From a virus (Duplodnaviria > Caudoviricetes), in the IMG/VR virus record IMGVR_UViG_3300024513_000076, positions 1 to 26,597 of that record: 26,597 bases of DNA. The stretch is one strand, 5' to 3'. Within the stretch, counting starts at the first letter, position 1. Each line of letters opens with the position of its first letter. Positions 2,047-21,929 of the stretch are shown here, piece by piece. The translations under genes and the position numbers were made by a program. A model generated the notes under the pieces. It searched no databases, had not been told where the DNA came from, and saw only the letters and a list, made by a program, of their open reading frames with translations.

Positions 2047-2279
2047 TGGATTGGCAGAGCATTCTCAACATCGTTGCTGGTGCTGTTCTGACAGCTATCG
2101 GTTGGTGGTGCCGTGAAATCTGGGACTCATTGAAGTCTTTGAAAAACGACATCCAACGAATTGAGATTGATCTGCCTAAAACCTACGTTTCCAAGGTCGA
2201 AATTAACACCAGATTCGACAAGATCGACTCAATTTTAGAAAGAATCTTTGATAAGTTAGATCACAAAGCAGACAAATAA
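2046..2279 (+). CDS. Small membrane protein, one N-terminal TM helix plus coiled coil (holin/antiholin candidate)
   Basis: Hydrophobic ILNIVAGAVLTAIGWW followed by a charged helix. Lies upstream of the lysis genes. Confidence 0.7.
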   Translation: MDWQSILNIVAGAVLTAIGWWCREIWDSLKSLKNDIQRIEIDLPKTYVSKVEINTRFDKIDSILERIFDKLDHKADK

Positions 2280-2280
2280 A

Positions 2281-2751
2281 ATGGACCCAATCACCGCGAT
2301 GGCGGCTGTCAACAAGGCAGTCAGTCTCATCAAGCAAGCGTCCTCTACTGTTGACAACGTAGCATCGTTGGGTCCGTTGATTGGCAAATACTTTGATGCC
2401 AAGCACACTGCTGTCAAAGCGGTAAAAGAAAATAAAAAGAGTGGTGGCTCAAACATGGCAAAAGCCATTGAGATTGAGCTGGCACTGAAAGCACAGAGAG
2501 ACTTTGAGGAACAACTCAAAGGTCTATTTTTCTCCAGCAACAACATGGATGTGTGGAACTCCATTATGGAGCGAGTCCAGCAGATGAATGCTGAAGACTC
2601 CGCAGAAGCTGCTAGGGAGAAAGATCGAGCCAAGAATGCAAAGAGACGTCAGCAAGAGATCAATGAAGTCTTGCTGGCGATTGGGATTATTTTGATGGTT
2701 TTGATCTTTGGGATATGGGGGTTGGTTGAACTTGTCAACATGAACCGATGA
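2281..2751 (+). CDS. Hypothetical helical protein with C-terminal TM anchor
   Basis: MDPITAMAA start, coiled-coil middle, hydrophobic VLLAIGIILMVLIFGIWGLV tail. Confidence 0.8.
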   Translation: MDPITAMAAVNKAVSLIKQASSTVDNVASLGPLIGKYFDAKHTAVKAVKENKKSGGSNMAKAIEIELALKAQRDFEEQLKGLFFSSNNMDVWNSIMERVQQMNAEDSAEAAREKDRAKNAKRRQQEINEVLLAIGIILMVLIFGIWGLVELVNMNR

Positions 2752-2912
2752 ATCCTAAAGACAGGAAAGCAGTTCTTGATGGGATTGATACTTACATCAA
2801 GATCAACTGTTACTTAGGATTTATTTGGGTGTTCTTGGATCTGTTGAAGGTTTTACCCATATCGCTTGCGGATAAGTTGGTAGCAATGGTTTTGGGGAGA
2901 CTTGGGTTGTGA
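2748..2912 (+). CDS. 54-aa hydrophobic small protein (not in ORF track)
   Basis: Hand translation: MNPKDRKAVLDGIDTYIKINCYLGFIWVFLDLLKVLPISLADKLVAMVLGRLGL. ATGA overlap upstream and GTGA overlap downstream fill the gap exactly. Confidence 0.75.
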   Translation: MNPKDRKAVLDGIDTYIKINCYLGFIWVFLDLLKVLPISLADKLVAMVLGRLGL

Positions 2913-3115
2913 ATCGTTTTGTAGTGATGTCCATTCTTGTTTTGATGGCAGGGTGCCAGGACAGGTATCGCTACAAATGTCAAGATCCAAAGCATTTCCA
3001 AGATCCTGAGTGTCAAAGGCCAAAGTGTCTTTTTACTCAGCAGTGTCCTGATTACTTGGTTGCCCCGATTCTGGAGAAACAAATAAATGCCCAACCAGCA
3101 GAACCTCAACGCTGA
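2909..3115 (+). CDS. Small cysteine-rich lipoprotein
   Basis: Signal peptide II with lipobox LMAG|C, plus four further Cys in the mature part. Confidence 0.8.
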   Translation: MNRFVVMSILVLMAGCQDRYRYKCQDPKHFQDPECQRPKCLFTQQCPDYLVAPILEKQINAQPAEPQR

Positions 3116-3548
3116 CGAAATAGAGGTCCGTATCTGGGGCTTCGTTGTTGTCATGGTCACTCTAATCCTAGCAGTGATTGTGATTGCCTTGTTGTACTCT
3201 GTGACCTTTGTCACTCAGCCAATCAAGTCAATGGCTCCGATTGACCAGGCATATACCAAGATGCTGAATGACATCGTTCTATTGATCGTTGGTGGCATTG
3301 GTGGGGTAATGAGCAAGAGAGCAACCAAAGCGGCTTCACAAGCCATTGCAGAGCCTTCTGGAGCGCCTCCAGGCCCAAAACCTAGTGCCCATTCAGTGAT
3401 GCCTGAGTTCAACTGGATGGGCTACAAGAATCCTGAGTTAGACGAGACATGGGTTGCTCCTCCTCCTCCAACAACTCCTGCAAATTACATTGATCCAGCA
3501 ATGGAAGATATAGCGCAGGAAAGAGCAGCAGCAAGGAGTGAGACATGA
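3087..3548 (+). CDS. Two-TM membrane protein with Pro-rich tail (holin candidate)
   Basis: Two hydrophobic segments (IWGFVVVMVTLILAVIVIALLYSV and IVLLIVGGIGGVM). Directly upstream of Rz. Confidence 0.7.
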   Translation: MPNQQNLNADEIEVRIWGFVVVMVTLILAVIVIALLYSVTFVTQPIKSMAPIDQAYTKMLNDIVLLIVGGIGGVMSKRATKAASQAIAEPSGAPPGPKPSAHSVMPEFNWMGYKNPELDETWVAPPPPTTPANYIDPAMEDIAQERAAARSET

Positions 3549-11208: not shown

Positions 11209-11390
11209 TTGCTTGCATGGGTGGATGGTGCACCAGCAGAGACAAATGCCAGCACTACTACGTGCACAGCAAAGTCATTGTTGAAAGGCTTTGTGGCAAG
11301 CTGGAAGAACCGGAGATGGTAAAAGTTGAACTAAAAACGGTTTCTATAAAACCATCAAGTTTTGATAGGAAAGAATATGACCATAAATAG
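11205..11390 (+). CDS. Small Cys-rich hypothetical protein
   Basis: CMGGWCxxRDKCxHY...ERLC. ATGA overlap. Confidence 0.7.
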   Translation: MIACMGGWCTSRDKCQHYYVHSKVIVERLCGKLEEPEMVKVELKTVSIKPSSFDRKEYDHK

Positions 11391-12255
11391 GTGGAGTGTT
11401 GAAGATATTGAATTCTTGAAAAAGTTTTATCCGTTAAAAGGAAAGAAATGGTGTTGTGATGCATTGCAAAAAACTGAAGCGTCTGTAAGATATAAAGCAT
11501 CTGCACTTAAATTAAAACAAGATCAAAATTCTCAATTTTTTTATGATTGGCAAGAAAGAGCAGCACTAAGCAAAATTGGCAAAAAAAGACCAGATCAAGC
11601 ATTTGTTATAAAAGATTTACATAGACTTGGAAAATTAAATAAAACAGACGAACAAAAAGCAAAATTAAGTTTAAGTAAAAAAAGATGGCATGAACAAAAT
11701 GAACATCCAAAAGGGATGCTTGGAAAAAAACATTCTAAAGAAGCATTAGAAAAAATGTCCATTGCATCAAAAAAGAATGCCGCTGCTATGAGTCAAGAAA
11801 AAAAAGCAGAAAAGACACTAAAGGCAATGAAAACAAGAGTTGCAAATGGTGGATTTGTACAACCAAGGCCAAAGACAACATGGAAGGGTGGTTGGAGAGA
11901 GATTGGTGGCGTTAACAAATTTTATAGATCAAGGTGGGAGGCCAACTATGCTAGATTTTTGGTTTGGCTCCAGCAACAAGGAAAAATAAGAAGTTGGAGA
12001 CATGAGCCTGAAACTTTTTGGTTTGAGGGAATTAAAAGAGGTTCTGTAAGTTATTTGCCAGATTTTTGGGTTCAAGAAATTGATGGAACTGATGCATTTC
12101 ATGAAGTCAAAGGATGGATGGATGACAGAAGCAAAACCAAATTAAAGCGAATGAAAAAATACTACCCTCATGTAAAATTGCTTATTGTTGGTGCAAAAGA
12201 ATACAAAGAATTAGAAAAACAATTTTCCAATTTAATTGTGGATTGGGAAAAATAA
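11377..12255 (+). CDS. NUMOD3-containing PD-(D/E)xK endonuclease (DUF1064/T7 endonuclease I-like C-terminus)
   Basis: GMLGKKHSKEALEKMS NUMOD3-like motif. C-terminal YRSRWEANYA...YLPDF...EVKGW catalytic pattern. Strongly AT-rich. Start may be 11362 or 11377. Confidence 0.8.
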   Translation: MTINRWSVEDIEFLKKFYPLKGKKWCCDALQKTEASVRYKASALKLKQDQNSQFFYDWQERAALSKIGKKRPDQAFVIKDLHRLGKLNKTDEQKAKLSLSKKRWHEQNEHPKGMLGKKHSKEALEKMSIASKKNAAAMSQEKKAEKTLKAMKTRVANGGFVQPRPKTTWKGGWREIGGVNKFYRSRWEANYARFLVWLQQQGKIRSWRHEPETFWFEGIKRGSVSYLPDFWVQEIDGTDAFHEVKGWMDDRSKTKLKRMKKYYPHVKLLIVGAKEYKELEKQFSNLIVDWEK

Positions 12256-12256
12256 A

Positions 12257-12589
12257 ATGGACGCTCCTTATAAAGCGGTAGAGTTTATTATTGAAAATTC
12301 TGCAAAGTACGCAGAAGCAAAATCAAAAAGAATCTATATATCTGAATTTAGAAAATCAAAGAAGGCATTGCTAATGAAGGAGGCAATGCTTAACAAGGTC
12401 GATGCAGCAAACGCTCAAGAACGCGAGGCGTACAGTAACCAGGAGTACATCGACCTGCTGGATGGTCTTGCAGCGGCGATTGAGGAAGAAGAAAGACTGT
12501 CCTGGATGCTTGAGGCTGCAAAGCTAAAGATAGAGATTTGGAAAACAGAATCCTTCAACAACCGCAGACAAGACAGAGCATCGGAATGA
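12257..12589 (+). CDS. Conserved helical hypothetical protein
   Basis: ATG 1 nt after the nuclease stop. YAEAK...EFRKSKKALLM...AQEREAY...IEIWKT all-alpha pattern. Confidence 0.8.
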   Translation: MDAPYKAVEFIIENSAKYAEAKSKRIYISEFRKSKKALLMKEAMLNKVDAANAQEREAYSNQEYIDLLDGLAAAIEEEERLSWMLEAAKLKIEIWKTESFNNRRQDRASE

Positions 12590-13269
12590 TTCACTACCAC
12601 GGAACTCCGATAACGCCAAAGTACGCTTTGGAATCAATGGGTGGAGAACATTTCTGTATAAGTTATTTCAGGCCAGATAGCCTTCAAACGTGCTTAAAAA
12701 TTGGTCAATCTTTAATGTTTGACAATGGGGCATTCAGTTGCAAAACCAGAAATGTGCCATTTGATTTGCATGGATTTTATGAATGGCTTGGCCCTTTGTT
12801 GGCCCATCCACATTGGGCAGTAGTGCCAGATGTCATTGATGGAACAGTAGAACAACAAAGACAAATGGTTAAGACTTGGCCTTACGGAAAGCAATTTGGC
12901 ATTCCTGTTTGGCATTGCGCTTTACCAATTGACTATTTGTTAGAACTTTGCGACTCATGGGGGAGAGTGTGCATCGGATCATCTGGAGAGTTTTGGCAAG
13001 TTGGCTCACCTAAGTGGTCAGCACGAATGGATGAAATTTTTAATGCATTGCACAAAACTTTCGGTCAGCGTTTGCCTTGGACGCATGGCTTAAGAATGCT
13101 TGGACAAGGAGAGAGCCATTGGCCTTTGTCATCTGCTGATAGCACTAATGTTGCTTTGAATCATGGAGAGCAACAACAGTGTGCCGGTTGCATGGCAAAA
13201 CGTATCAACAAACAAAACCCACCGACATCATGGAAACAACAACCAACACAAAATCACCTGTTTTGCTGA
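12586..13269 (+). CDS. TGT-fold protein, DpdA-like (putative DNA 7-deazaguanine transglycosylase)
   Basis: Ordered motifs FDNGAFS, VPDVI, PVWH, VCIGSSG, HGLRM, SADST parallel the TGT/DpdA barrel motifs. Adjacent to a YhhQ-like gene. ATGA start at 12586. Confidence 0.7.
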   Translation: MIHYHGTPITPKYALESMGGEHFCISYFRPDSLQTCLKIGQSLMFDNGAFSCKTRNVPFDLHGFYEWLGPLLAHPHWAVVPDVIDGTVEQQRQMVKTWPYGKQFGIPVWHCALPIDYLLELCDSWGRVCIGSSGEFWQVGSPKWSARMDEIFNALHKTFGQRLPWTHGLRMLGQGESHWPLSSADSTNVALNHGEQQQCAGCMAKRINKQNPPTSWKQQPTQNHLFC

Positions 13270-13751
13270 TTGCAATAGTTATATATGCATTGGCAATAAT
13301 TGCAGCAAATTTAACTGTTGCTGTATTTGGACCATCAATAACGCCAATTAACGCATTTGTTTTAATTGGGCTTGATCTTGCATTAAGAGATTGGTTGCAC
13401 TTAAGGCTTAAAACATGGCAAATGGGATGTTTGATATTTGGCACTGGATTGATAACTTATGTGCTAAACCAAGATGCTGGACGCATTGCTTTTGCATCAT
13501 CAGCATCTTTTGTCATTGCCGCTGTTGTTGATTGGCAAGTATTTCGTACCATCAAAGGATCGTGGTTGAAACGGTCTAATGTGTCAAACACTGCTGGTGC
13601 TGCGGTTGATTCGTTACTTTTTCCGACGATTGCGTTTGATGGGCTGATGCCTGAAATCGTGGCTTTGCAATTTGTTGCCAAGACTGTTGGTGGTGCAATT
13701 TGGGCATGGACATTGGCTTATGTACAAAAAACTGACCTACGTCCGCAGTAA
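13263..13751 (+). CDS. VUT/YhhQ-family membrane protein (queuosine precursor preQ0/preQ1 transporter-like)
   Basis: Multiple TM helices with IIAAN, LRDWLH, DWQVF and SNxxGAAVDSLLFPTIAF motifs. Start uncertain (TTG 13263 or ATG 13230). Confidence 0.8.
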   Translation: MLIAIVIYALAIIAANLTVAVFGPSITPINAFVLIGLDLALRDWLHLRLKTWQMGCLIFGTGLITYVLNQDAGRIAFASSASFVIAAVVDWQVFRTIKGSWLKRSNVSNTAGAAVDSLLFPTIAFDGLMPEIVALQFVAKTVGGAIWAWTLAYVQKTDLRPQ

Positions 13752-14034
13752 GCAGCTTCTGAGGATGGTGGCTGAACTTGAATGCCAGCACTGCGGAGCT
13801 TATCCAAGCCAAGCAGCTCACTCAAACTGGCATGGAAAGGGAATGGGCTTAAAAAGTTCAGATGTTAACGTAGCTGCATTGTGCTTAAGATGTCATTGGG
13901 AAGTTGACCAGGGAAATAAGTTAAGCAAAGAGGAAAGAAAGAAGATGTGGATGGACGCCCACAAGAAAACAGTGCAAACGATGTTAAGTCGAGGAAAGTG
14001 GCCTCAAGACATTGAGATTCCAGATTTGACATGA
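13720..14034 (+). CDS. Zn-binding HNH-like protein (DUF968/Ref-like)
   Basis: CQHCG...QAAHSN..GKGMGLK...ALCLRCH. Nin-region-like position. Confidence 0.8.
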   Translation: MYKKLTYVRSKQLLRMVAELECQHCGAYPSQAAHSNWHGKGMGLKSSDVNVAALCLRCHWEVDQGNKLSKEERKKMWMDAHKKTVQTMLSRGKWPQDIEIPDLT

Positions 14035-15261: not shown

Positions 15262-15551
15262 CTGCCGCCTGGACCAGAAAAGAGGGAAAGAATCCAAAGG
15301 GTGGCCTCAATGAAAAAGGCCGTAAGTCTTATGAAAGACAGAACCCTGGTTCTAACTTGAAGGCTCCTGTAAAGAGTGGAGACAACCCAAGAAGGGCATC
15401 TTTTCTGGCAAGGATGGGGAATATGCCTGGTCCAGAATACAAGGATGGAGAGCCAACAAGACTCCTGTTGAGCCTAAAGGCTTGGGGAGCAAACAGCAAG
15501 GCAGATGCTAAAGCAAAGGCTAAAGCAATCAGCGCGAGAAATAAAAAATGA
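15258..15551 (+). CDS. Basic conserved phage protein, DUF6321-like
   Basis: AWTRKEGKNPKGGLNEKGR...RRASFLARM...LSLKAW. Confidence 0.8.
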   Translation: MTAAWTRKEGKNPKGGLNEKGRKSYERQNPGSNLKAPVKSGDNPRRASFLARMGNMPGPEYKDGEPTRLLLSLKAWGANSKADAKAKAKAISARNKK

Positions 15552-16732
15552 GTCTACTAGAAGACGAAATTAAGCCAACACCAAGGAATTACATACTTGG
15601 TTTATTGGCTGATGCAGCACAAAGGGCAAATGAGACGGTAAGCCGTCCTGCTGGATACGACAATCCGCCTGGCCGAATTCTGATGAGTCTTCTTGGTGTT
15701 CCTGCAATTGCTCAGACTCTTGATAGATTGTCTTATGGAGAGCCATTGACCACTGGCAGAGGAATGACAACAAAAGTCAGACCAGAAGCAATGGAAGCAG
15801 CAATGGCAATTGCTCCTGGAGTTGGGCCAGCAACAAAAGCAACTGCTAAAGCAGCTAAAGCCGCTGCAAAAGAACTTGGACCAAAAGCCGCAGACATTGC
15901 AGAGCGGTACATGATGGAACAGGGGTTAGCCAAGCCAATGATTGTTTGGCATGGAAGCCCACATAAGTTTAAGAAGTTCGACCCCTCAAAGATTGGGACG
16001 GGTGAGGGTGCTCAAGCGTATGGGCATGGGTTGTATTTGGCTGAGTCTCCTGACGTAGCCAAGGCATATCAGCCGCGTGACCCCAATCTAGAGCAAAGAA
16101 TCATGCAGCGGTATTCGCAAGCGGAAAAGGCAAAAGATTACCCGGCGATGCAGGTGTATGAGGATTACCTGCTGCACAAAACTCCAATGGACGTTGAGCA
16201 GGGATTGAAAGAGGCGGGCTTTGAAGGAAAAGACCTCGCGTCAGCGTTAAGAGCGCACAACATTGCAAAGAGGGAATACTTCAATCAGCGCGCTGGTTCC
16301 CTCTACAAAGTTGACTTGCCCGACGAGCAAATTGCAAAGATGCTTGATTGGGATAAGCCGCTGAGTGAACAAACGGAATATGTGCGCAAAGCATTGGAGG
16401 CGCTTGGATACAAGTACGACAAAGCTGCTTCTAATGCGTATTCTGACGCTCTACTGTCAGCGCTTGAGGGAGACGCAACTTTGGCATTGCCAAAAATGCC
16501 TCGCAACCCACAAGGTTCTGAGATTGCTCGCGGACAGGGAATTTTCGACGCTCCAAAAGACAAAGTTATTGCAGAAAAATTGCGTCAAGCAGGTATCCCT
16601 GGCATCCGCTATCTTGACCAAGGCTCACGCGGTGCAGGTCAAGGCACCAGCAACTTTGTAGTGTTTCCTGGAGAAGAAGAGTTGCTTAAAATCCTTGAGC
16701 GCAACGGGATACCAATAGAGTCACTACTGTAA
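15548..16732 (+). CDS. Two-part protein with C-terminal ADP-ribosyltransferase-like domain (polyvalent-protein type)
   Basis: VWHGSPHKF..FD...GTGEGAQAYGHGLYLAESPDVAKAY...LYKVDL...GIPGIRYLD...NFVVF, preceded by an Ala/Lys-rich linker. Confidence 0.7.
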   Translation: MSLLEDEIKPTPRNYILGLLADAAQRANETVSRPAGYDNPPGRILMSLLGVPAIAQTLDRLSYGEPLTTGRGMTTKVRPEAMEAAMAIAPGVGPATKATAKAAKAAAKELGPKAADIAERYMMEQGLAKPMIVWHGSPHKFKKFDPSKIGTGEGAQAYGHGLYLAESPDVAKAYQPRDPNLEQRIMQRYSQAEKAKDYPAMQVYEDYLLHKTPMDVEQGLKEAGFEGKDLASALRAHNIAKREYFNQRAGSLYKVDLPDEQIAKMLDWDKPLSEQTEYVRKALEALGYKYDKAASNAYSDALLSALEGDATLALPKMPRNPQGSEIARGQGIFDAPKDKVIAEKLRQAGIPGIRYLDQGSRGAGQGTSNFVVFPGEEELLKILERNGIPIESLL

Positions 16733-20474: not shown

Positions 20475-21929
20475 ATGGCTGACATTGAAACTGGCTACGG
20501 AAATGATAGTTACTACGGCCCAGGTGGTGGTTATTACTGGGAAACCTCTGGTCAACCGTCTGGGTCCTCGCAGAACAATGCTTGGCAGACGATGATAAAT
20601 CCGGCTGATACGTTTATCCCACAAACGCTTGCTGGATTGCCATTGACAAGCCTTCCTATTGAAGGCTATCAGAATCGTTATTTTGGTGAGGGGTATGGCT
20701 ATGGTGCTGGAAGGTTTATTGACCAAACAACCCCGTTGGCGATGCAGTTTGGCGCTCCACAGCAAACGATTCAAACTCCAACTCAGCGTCCTCTCTATAC
20801 CCCTTCAGCCTGGGAAGCTCCTGCTATTGGTACAGTGGTCCAGAAGCAAGGAGATCAAACGCTTGCCAACATTCAGACTCAACTGACCAATTTAGCCAAT
20901 CAGCAAGCATCTTTGCAAAACCAGTTGGCTGGTGGAATTGAGTTGACTCCTGAACAGATCAATATGATCGGAAGTCAGTTCAAGCCTACTGACCTATCTG
21001 GGCTGCAAAGCGAGTTGGACGCTCTTAAGGGGCTATACAAGCCGACAGATTTGACGAGCATACAAGACCAACTAAACACGCTCAAAGACTTGTATCAGCC
21101 TACTGACTTTACTTCGTTGCAGGACCAGTTGAAATCATTAAAGGATCTGTATCAGCCAACTGACTTAACTGCATTGCAGGATCAGATTTCTTCGTTGAGA
21201 GACCTATATCAGCCAGCAGATTTGACATCTTTGCAAAATCAGTTGGCATCTTTGAAAGATCTGTATGGTTCTTTTGATCTGACATCTTTGCAAGATCAAC
21301 TGACAAGTCTTAAGGATCTCTATCAGCCAACGGATCTGACTTCTTTGCAGGATCAAATCTCTAATCTGAAAGATTTGTATCAGCCTACTGATTTGACATC
21401 CTTACAGAATGAACTTGCATCTTTGAGAGATTTGTATAAACCAACAGATCTTTCTGAATTGCAATCTCAACTAGCTGACTTGCAAGGCCGTGGACCTGTT
21501 GATTTGTCATCGATCTACGACCAATTGGCAGAACTTCAGAGCCGCCCAAGTTATGAACCCGTAGACTTGTCTACACTGCAAAGTCAACTGGATTCATTGC
21601 AAAGCCAAATCAGTGGAATTCAACCAACTGATCTTTCAGGGTTAATTTCTCAACTTAATACTTTGCAAGATCAGGTCTCTGGAATCCAATCAACAGACAT
21701 CTCTGGCTTAACCTCAGATATTGCTGCACTGCAAAATCAGATTTCTGGAATCAAGCCAACTGACCTGTCTGGAATACAAGCACAGATTGACGCTCTTAAG
21801 GGTTTATACCAACCAACTGATCTGACAAGCATCATTGATTCTTTGGCTGCTTTGCAAAGCCAGATTGGTTCTTTGTCTAATTTAGGCCAGCAATCTTCTG
21901 AATTGGTTGACTACGGATTACTACAATGA
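20475..21929 (+). CDS. Repeat-rich segmented coiled-coil protein
   Basis: G/Y-rich N-terminus followed by about 15 units of YQPTDLTSLQDQLxSLKDL type. Confidence 0.85.
   Translation: MADIETGYGNDSYYGPGGGYYWETSGQPSGSSQNNAWQTMINPADTFIPQTLAGLPLTSLPIEGYQNRYFGEGYGYGAGRFIDQTTPLAMQFGAPQQTIQTPTQRPLYTPSAWEAPAIGTVVQKQGDQTLANIQTQLTNLANQQASLQNQLAGGIELTPEQINMIGSQFKPTDLSGLQSELDALKGLYKPTDLTSIQDQLNTLKDLYQPTDFTSLQDQLKSLKDLYQPTDLTALQDQISSLRDLYQPADLTSLQNQLASLKDLYGSFDLTSLQDQLTSLKDLYQPTDLTSLQDQISNLKDLYQPTDLTSLQNELASLRDLYKPTDLSELQSQLADLQGRGPVDLSSIYDQLAELQSRPSYEPVDLSTLQSQLDSLQSQISGIQPTDLSGLISQLNTLQDQVSGIQSTDISGLTSDIAALQNQISGIKPTDLSGIQAQIDALKGLYQPTDLTSIIDSLAALQSQIGSLSNLGQQSSELVDYGLLQ
20979..21875 (+). repeat. Degenerate in-frame tandem repeat, mostly 57 nt (19 aa), with 66-nt (22 aa) variants
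   Basis: Recurrent TATCAGCC(A/T)AC(T/G)GA motif. Peptide units counted by hand. Confidence 0.9.

Follow-up and report, generated by a model that had tools for sequence, protein, structure and literature searches.

The 26,597-nucleotide (nt) stretch of DNA analysed here (positions 1 to 26,597 of IMG/VR record IMGVR_UViG_3300024513_000076, hereafter referred to as the window) is a linear viral contig which was derived from riverine metagenomes, is estimated to be 74% complete and carries on its plus strand two overlapping genes that form a real, intact and optional cassette. The first of these genes (12586..13269) is predicted to encode a compact DNA guanine transglycosylase of the DpdA family, comprising 227 amino acids (aa) arranged as an eight-strand barrel, while the second (13263..13751) is predicted to encode a phage-type YhhQ/VUT membrane protein of 162 aa. 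Based on sequence comparison, structural modelling and analogy to characterised relatives, we propose that the transporter imports a 7-deazaguanine base and that DpdA exchanges this base for some of the guanines in the phage DNA, a role which we consider probable. The locus does not represent a new kind of system.

Assignment of the 227-aa product to the DpdA family is based on its match to PHROG 887 (E 3.9e-43), a group which also contains the DpdA proteins of phages 9g, CAjan, 7-11 and MED16, and on its similarity to gp32 of Salmonella phage 7-11 (31% identity, E 9e-32). A family profile of 137 rows matched CAjan DpdA at E 1.4e-22 and 9g DpdA at E 2.6e-19, and a tblastn search matched 105 of 50,697 phage records, the best 60 of which include SfI, BTP1, SEN1, SPN3UB and MED16; the family amounts to 7,980 proteins at 90% identity among 7,999 scored. 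The protein obtained no match in Pfam or NCBIfam and is consequently also without a match to the Pfam DpdA type (PF23859/PHROG 1279), which gp25 of phage phiLM21 matches at 2e-43. The profile of the tRNA guanine transglycosylases (TGTs), PF01702, was likewise unmatched, the Zn subdomain being missing and position 110 being occupied by His; the pocket of the tRNA TGTs carries Gln. In a quick, midpoint-rooted tree, the window DpdA groups with proteins of freshwater viral contigs and betaproteobacterial prophages to form a separate branch, with CAjan and 9g DpdA on a long branch apart from this clade.

The enzyme is modelled as a (beta/alpha)8 barrel of the TGT type, in agreement with the fold assigned to it in the preliminary description of this DNA. 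An AlphaFold2 model built from a deeper alignment displayed eight strands with a mean predicted local distance difference test (pLDDT) score of 96.3 and a predicted template modelling (pTM) score of 0.92; it replaced a first model, based on 44 close homologues (pLDDT 78), in which strands 7-8 were unresolved and which matched generic barrels only. The best match in the Protein Data Bank (PDB) as determined by Foldseek was Cap10 (E 5e-4, TM 0.59), TGTs being found at a TM of ~0.5 among other barrels. When 998 of Foldseek's top 1000 chains were subjected to VIA structural comparison, all top 50 rows, which were those listed, belonged to the TGT family (Z 13.4-14.7, root mean square deviation 3.0-3.5 over ~200 residues), with Cap10 at 14.7, arcTGT at 14.1 and bacterial TGT at 13.4-13.8; bacterial DpdA is not among these 50 rows, which carries no weight either way. 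Matches in BFVD were phage models labelled 'queuine tRNA-ribosyltransferase', whereas PDB sequence searches with the protein, the 137-row profile and the transporter returned nothing meaningful.

All of the motifs listed for this reading frame in the preliminary description are present, namely HYHG, DNGAF (harboring D46), PDV (D82), PVWH (H110), IGSSG, HGL (H167) and SADS (D185), and among the 137 sequences D46 is conserved in 135, D82 and H110 in 137 each, H167 in 134 and D185 in 131. The two aspartates whose correspondence to catalytic positions had been anticipated, D46 and D185, line up with D63 and D206 of CAjan DpdA, while F50, H110, G131, H167 and L169 align with F67, H132, G153, H187 and F189, respectively; PMC7544227 assigns these CAjan positions, with the exception of H187, to the catalytic site or the pocket. 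H167 also aligns with H196 of 9g. D46 is predicted to serve as the acid/base after strand 3 and D185 as the nucleophile after strand 8, with F50, D82, H110, G131 and L169 forming the predicted pocket. The residue types of the window protein also run in the same order as D95, F99, D130, H181, L236 and D256 of bacterial DpdA (PMC10164549), a correspondence which is a match by order only. Typical of the clade are N47 (126/137) and R170 (133/137), where CAjan and 9g possess Ser and Gly.

The 227 residues do not include a TGT-type CXCX2C...H Zn motif. A C199-x-x-C202 pair, invariant in the 44 close homologues, was considered as a family Zn site and was rejected as clade specific, its cysteines being retained in only 30 and 28 of the 137 wider sequences. 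Short size and the missing Zn motif had previously been taken as marks of an unusual enzyme; they do not set the window DpdA apart because each is found among known DpdAs, the proteins of 7-11 and MED16 being 234 and 261 aa in length and DpdA1 of CAjan also being without CXCX2C.

Translation of the transporter gene most likely initiates at the TTG codon at 13263, which was chosen because close relatives possess ATG at this position and which creates a 7-nt overlap with the dpdA stop. The overlapping VUT reading frame described previously is real, but its longer starts, at 13179 and 13230, were discarded in view of the start position in relatives. The 162-aa product passed the Pfam Vut_1 cut-off (PF02592, COG1738; 42.8 versus 27.2 bits over residues 4-148, E 8.7e-11, compared to 1.9e-10 for the reading frame as first called), and its hydropathy peaks display the hydrophobic multi-helix profile of VUT. 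It belongs to PHROG 4899 together with CAjan gp41 (159 aa) and phiLM21 gp26, and 12 columns are invariant across an 18-row alignment which includes both of these proteins. The sequence thus identifies the protein as a member of a shorter phage subfamily of VUT, PHROG 4899, as opposed to a curated YhhQ equivalog. YhhQ of Escherichia coli is reported to be required for the uptake of the queuosine precursor preQ0, in a source which describes the family as heterogeneous and advises caution (PMC5372724). Both cassette genes are under purifying selection, as codon changes relative to the homologous locus L003 were 103 synonymous and 40 non-synonymous for dpdA and 66 synonymous and 49 non-synonymous for vut.

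The DpdA and VUT pair constitutes a clean 1,159-bp indel (12591..13749, plus strand), the filled and empty alleles of which occur in the same river samples. Among 80 loci found via the terminase, five near-identical ones span both flanks: two carry the cassette and are 100% identical to the window, while in the remaining three (L135, L136 and L139; flanks 93-95% identical) the segment is replaced by 25 bases which represent the start of the HNH-like gene located downstream. In the window, which has the cassette, the HNH-like gene instead begins anew at 13720, within the terminal portion of the transporter gene. In seven more distant relatives, the two flanking genes are located close together with no cassette between them; one of these, L168, harbors dpdA together with queD further upstream (about 2250-3400). 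The empty joint (12590-13750) was present in three of the four river runs examined, and contig depth, a rough measure, was 43.2 for the empty versus 15.9 for the filled allele in one DNA run and 24 versus 17.9 in another. No variant letters are listed within the cassette interior, with many in the flanks, in contigs that drop rare variants. The third-position GC of the cassette genes is 0.36 and 0.29, whereas values of 0.40-0.54 were obtained for all but one of eight further genes; the exception (0.22) is likewise a variable insert. The likelier reading of this pattern is a recent gain of the cassette by recombination.

This DpdA clade is accompanied by genes of the pathway, a result which answers the call in the preliminary description for the neighbourhoods of homologues to be compared. 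VUT is encoded beside dpdA in 34 of 39 IMG/VR loci (one of the five misses is cut at a contig end). At 90% identity, this corresponds to 14 of 15 groups; among GTDB loci the figure is 13 of 80, and both orders of the two genes occur. Across 88 groups at 90% identity, and within the stretch examined, VUT is encoded in 29, a QueF-L-like protein in 16 and QueD, adjacent or fused, in four, with none of these in 45; neither the QueF-L-like nor the QueD partner occurs in the window.

Several features of these neighbourhoods were observed in addition. The QueF-L-like protein (80 aa, PHROG 37496) harbors invariant CP, VE and E...H motifs, has 5jyx as its best PDB match (E 0.008) and replaces or accompanies VUT, for example at L006:3054-3305, L017:1333-1572, L035:5739-5996, L055:3350-3598 and L091:3759-4001. 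Fusions of DpdA were found to QueD (P0166), to a D12-class, Dam-type adenine methylase (P0269) and, within a single long reading frame, to a PAPS-reductase-like domain (L078:4001-5716). Pairs of queD and dpdA with no other preQ0 genes nearby are present in L168, the terminase relative of the window phage mentioned above, and in Caulobacter phage DMCA (L048:4705-5726). A second small family of ~85 aa, with no Pfam match, is encoded next to dpdA or between dpdA and VUT (L050:4178-4435, L048:5723-5977, L049:3012-3257 and L110:266-685).

The occurrence of VUT in prophage copies of the locus was also compared to the gene content of the hosts. Host queC was absent or below cut-off in six of the 13 genomes with VUT at the dpdA locus versus four of the remaining 67 (Fisher p 9e-4, with two partial matches located at the ends of contigs taken as present). 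When only metagenome-assembled genomes (MAGs) were considered, the corresponding figures were 6/11 and 4/29 (p 0.014); removal of 12 VUT-negative loci with <600 bases on one side reduced the VUT-negative count to 1/55, and with three related Solirubrobacterales collapsed and one doubtful bin dropped the p value was 0.001-0.01. The tendency of VUT to track hosts without queC is as import would predict and, therefore, fits an importer role, rendering the import function suggested in the preliminary description likely. Host YhhQ (TIGR00697) scored over cut-off in eight of 30 genomes searched from the 80 and was not used as evidence.

As had been noted from the sequence, genes for making the precursor were not detected in the window: profiles for QueC, QueD, FolE and radical-SAM proteins obtained zero matches in the contig, which is 74% complete, with controls matching in 10 to 14 of 14 genomes. 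QueC, QueD and FolE were also absent from all five related IMG/VR records, two of which are complete with terminal repeats.

DNA modification has been reported for phages which encode a related DpdA only. Salmonella phage 7-11 contains 50 residues of the deoxynucleoside of 7-amido-7-deazaguanine (dADG) per 1e6 nt (PMC6884629), and Pantoea phage MED16 is reported to contain 354 dADG and 3 dPreQ0, the deoxynucleoside of preQ0, per 1e6 nt; dADG accounts for ~0.02% and 0.13% of G in these two assayed relatives. The detection of dADG in the DNA of these family members largely settles in favor of DNA the doubt expressed previously as to whether DNA or tRNA is the target, and the suggestion that the inserted base may differ from that of characterised enzymes was a fair one, as both relatives yield dADG rather than dPreQ0.

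In the proposed mechanism, the transporter would supply the infected cell with preQ0 or a closely related 7-deazaguanine precursor, its substrate and direction of transport being presumed, and DpdA would then swap this precursor for a small fraction of the guanines in the replicated DNA of the phage, the likely product being low-level dADG or dPreQ0. The exchange is presumed to proceed by double displacement, with D185 as nucleophile and D46 as acid/base, a chemistry taken from bacterial DpdA (PMC10164549), while the DNA target and the dADG product are taken from 7-11 and MED16. The transporter may free the enzyme from the need for a preQ0-making host, and the benefit to the phage could be protection from one or a few sequence-specific host nucleases.

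Several observations weigh against this proposal. The transporter does not reach the YhhQ equivalog models TIGR00697 (20.9 versus 50.95 bits) and PRK11212 (21.4 versus 252 bits), only 73 of its columns align to full-length enterobacterial YhhQ (probability 84%), and deletion of yhhQ in CAjan, a phage which makes its own preQ0, is reported to be without effect. With respect to the enzyme, Foldseek by itself reached only E 5e-4 for its top match, and the assignment of D82 rests on its invariance (137/137) because two aligners set D82 against CAjan S102 and pair D85 with CAjan D105, the counterpart of D130 in bacterial DpdA and the third Asp, which reads the edge of the base. The link between dpdA and dADG in 7-11 and MED16, as reported, is one of gene content and not of knockout, and MED16 DNA is described as being cut by EcoRV, EcoRI, HaeIII and BamHI, and by all enzymes with G-containing sites that were tested except Dam-sensitive ones. 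Seven of the 13 VUT-bearing hosts do carry queC, and the queC association derives mostly from MAGs, for which gaps, misbinned phage contigs and kinship are possible contributors. Palindromic 6-mers containing GA or GGC are avoided in the window (27 observed versus 109 expected), and the literature searched, which did not extend to subscription papers, contained no experiment on a phage with DpdA and VUT only and no study of the pair.

A refinement of the proposed exchange, which we regard as possible though rather doubtful, is that the enzyme follows the same chemistry but accepts 7-amido-7-deazaguanine (ADG), an intermediate of QueC, directly, thus producing dADG without a DpdC-like hydratase. 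Both 7-11 and MED16 yield dADG, MED16 containing ~100-fold more of it than of dPreQ0; the QueC route is reported to pass through ADG; N47 and R170 occupy the positions at which the preQ0-inserting enzymes of CAjan and 9g have Ser and Gly; Cap10, the best structural match, binds amido-deazaguanine; and a search of MED16, 7-11 and PEAT2 for a mini QueF-L gene, performed without a positive control genome, was negative. However, the same product could arise through enzymes of the host or if dPreQ0 were hydrated spontaneously, the Z scores of Cap10 and arcTGT differ by less than 1 unit, and Hutinet 2019 (PMC6884629) suggested an unknown phage oxidising protein instead.

The anti-restriction function put forward in the preliminary description emerges as weak, since MED16 DNA is cut and a CAjan derivative without queC, in which dPreQ0 is reported to be 12-fold less abundant, had its DNA cut and enjoyed no protection. 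It is conceivable, if unlikely in our estimation, that the modification is real and has no anti-restriction role, representing either a sparse mark involved in packaging, transcription or the exclusion of rival phages, or an almost neutral element carried along with the nin region. Such a role would agree with the absence of protection at low modification in these two phages, with the apparently greater abundance of the cassette-less allele in the two DNA runs and with the palindrome counts, avoidance in the window being similar to that in the loci of five relatives without dpdA (0.15-0.28). By comparison, 195 GA/GGC palindromes were observed in 9g (200 expected) and 157 in CAjan (221 expected). 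The palindrome test is, however, weak and uninformative as to function, given that the cassette is polymorphic and, in the likelier reading, a recent gain. The strong purifying selection on the cassette genes and the large size of the family argue against this alternative. Optional presence is usual for counter-defence genes and counts against it as well. Furthermore, full modification of a single rare motif would block the matching nuclease and yet remain a trace in bulk liquid chromatography-mass spectrometry. Narrow protection at a rare motif, as opposed to blanket protection, would be the simplest benefit of the proposed base exchange. Over the entire window (1-26597), 153 palindromic 6-mers were observed versus 324 expected, with TGATCA (0 of 13.5), AAGCTT (0 of 10.2) and CTGCAG (0 of 8.5) absent; this strong avoidance is shared with relatives and is indicative of intense Type II restriction by the host.

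A further alternative, to which we attach very little probability, is that the pair counters deazaguanylation-dependent defences such as the type IV cyclic oligonucleotide-based antiphage signalling system (CBASS) or QatABCD and does not camouflage DNA, in that a Cap10-like barrel with an amide-reading pocket would capture 7-carboxy-7-deazaguanine (CDG) or ADG, draining it into DNA, or a modified protein tail, trace dADG then being a by-product. Cap10 was the top match in both fold searches and also lacks a Zn site, and the low level of modification in MED16, which brings no benefit against restriction, would be in keeping with this function; Cap10 is, however, only 11% identical to the window protein and level with ordinary TGTs in its score, import would enlarge the pool rather than drain it, and VUT tracks hosts without queC. 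Least probable of all is action of the enzyme as a TGT on host tRNA, with the transporter boosting queuosine for phage translation, since, notwithstanding its structural likeness to tRNA TGTs, the 'queuine tRNA-ribosyltransferase' label in databases and the service of YhhQ in tRNA queuosine salvage in bacteria (PMC5372724), the protein carries H110, the His also found at this pocket position in CAjan and bacterial DpdA, together with an equivalent of 9g H196 in H167, has no Pfam TGT match and no Zn subdomain, and has relatives with modified DNA and a DNA methylase fusion (P0269).

The upstream flank of the cassette is formed by a conserved 110-aa ORF (open reading frame; 12257..12589, plus strand) which has no Pfam, NCBIfam or PHROG match and is kept in relatives whether or not they carry the cassette. 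An ATGA overlap joins its stop to the start of dpdA, for which reason translational coupling is likely. Downstream, an HNH-like ORF of 104 aa (13720..14034, plus strand; PHROG 131, E 1.1e-20) starts within the final 32 nt of the transporter gene, and its translation agrees with the N-terminus read from the empty allele; beyond it lies a gene for a Q-like antiterminator. The placement of the pair between nin-like genes in the preliminary description is a fair one in view of these two downstream genes, the upstream neighbour being family-less. Along the contig, the gene types comprise replication, nin-like, Q-like, terminase, portal and head. Neither cassette gene was matched by PADLOC, no Rfam family was matched in the window, hence no preQ1 riboswitch, and promoter-like sites did not exceed chance level (3 found versus 6.2 expected). 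RNA-library contigs span parts of both cassette genes in two runs, which does not constitute evidence of transcription.

Variability was also apparent elsewhere in the window. A 297-aa, AT-rich endonuclease ORF (11355-12255; NUMOD3-like plus DUF1064, third-position GC 0.22) represents a second variable insert, unmatched in the near-identical phage L139, and reads give a loose end at 12256. Another indel is located between the HNH-like and Q-like genes (14015-14022), where L135 carries ~390 extra bases, a joint being present in two DNA runs. Ahead of the terminase genes, a 394-aa ORF with an ART-PolyVal domain (15548-16732, E 4e-8) lies in a region that differs among near-identical phages, while a 484-aa ORF after the portal gene (20475-21929) contains imperfect repeats of ~19 residues (YQPTDLTSLQ-like), the number of which seems to vary among relatives.

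Among known systems, the closest enzymes are those of the DpdA-only phages, which constitute group 3 of Hutinet 2019 (PMC6884629) and cluster DpdA/TGT_1 of PMC8306585; Supplementary Data 1 of the former lists SfI, PEAT2, 7-11, SEN1, SPN3UB, BTP1 and Athena1. The proteins of 7-11 (gp32), MED16 (gp38), SEN1, BTP1, SfI and SPN3UB are, like that of the window, short members of the same family (31-40% identity) with N after the first Asp, an HGLR motif and no accompanying synthesis genes. Unlike these, the window DpdA belongs to a separate branch with a clade-specific CxxC, and, in the stretches examined, 7-11 and MED16 encode no VUT beside dpdA. Host-made or imported precursors were proposed for DpdA-only phages in Hutinet 2019, where phage YhhQ genes were also noted.

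A combination of DpdA and VUT as in the window is encoded by Pectobacterium phage PEAT2 (gp18-19; its entry in the Hutinet 2019 table lists DpdA and not VUT), Pseudanabaena phage Pam5 (gp30/gp28) and Rhizobium phage RHph_X2_30, and by the further cultured phages Tbat1_6, LHE71, Phc and AB3P2. In these phages, for which no DNA assay was found in the literature, the two genes are adjacent or within two small ORFs of each other and their order varies. The same table lists DpdA and YhhQ only for Sinorhizobium phage phiLM21 (gp25-26), Clostridium phage CDKM15 and halophage eHP-6. Phage phiLM21 shares with the window the adjacent two-gene layout, the lack of synthesis genes and a PHROG 4899 transporter, whereas its DpdA belongs to another subfamily (PF23859, PHROG 1279).

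DpdA1 of CAjan and 9g is a member of PHROG 887 with the same catalytic and pocket positions as the window enzyme, and CAjan gp41 is similar to the window transporter in size and family. As reported in PMC7544227 and PMC6884629, these phages differ in their longer DpdA (306-317 aa), in their preQ0 synthesis genes, in the ~25-30% of G that is modified and in their resistance to restriction. Cap10 of type IV CBASS (PDB 9ntn; bioRxiv 10.1101/2025.04.06.647259) is likewise a TGT-family barrel without a Zn site, but it is a bacterial defence protein which binds modified protein, and no CBASS context is present at the window. Bacterial DpdA of the Dpd restriction-modification system is described as possessing a CXCX2CX22H Zn site, a large insertion after strand 8 and the partners dpdB/dpdC (PMC10164549); the window DpdA differs in the absence of this motif and of any PADLOC match.

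The two-gene layout of DpdA and YhhQ is thus already known from other phages, and the module is not new. Both PMC8306585 and PMC6884629 ask how DpdA-only phages acquire dADG and what purpose a trace modification might serve. The present analysis adds naturally occurring alleles with and without the cassette from a single river population, an initial quantitative hint of an association between the small phage VUT and hosts unable to make preQ0, and, in the 227-aa enzyme, a very small candidate writer of 7-deazaguanine into DNA.

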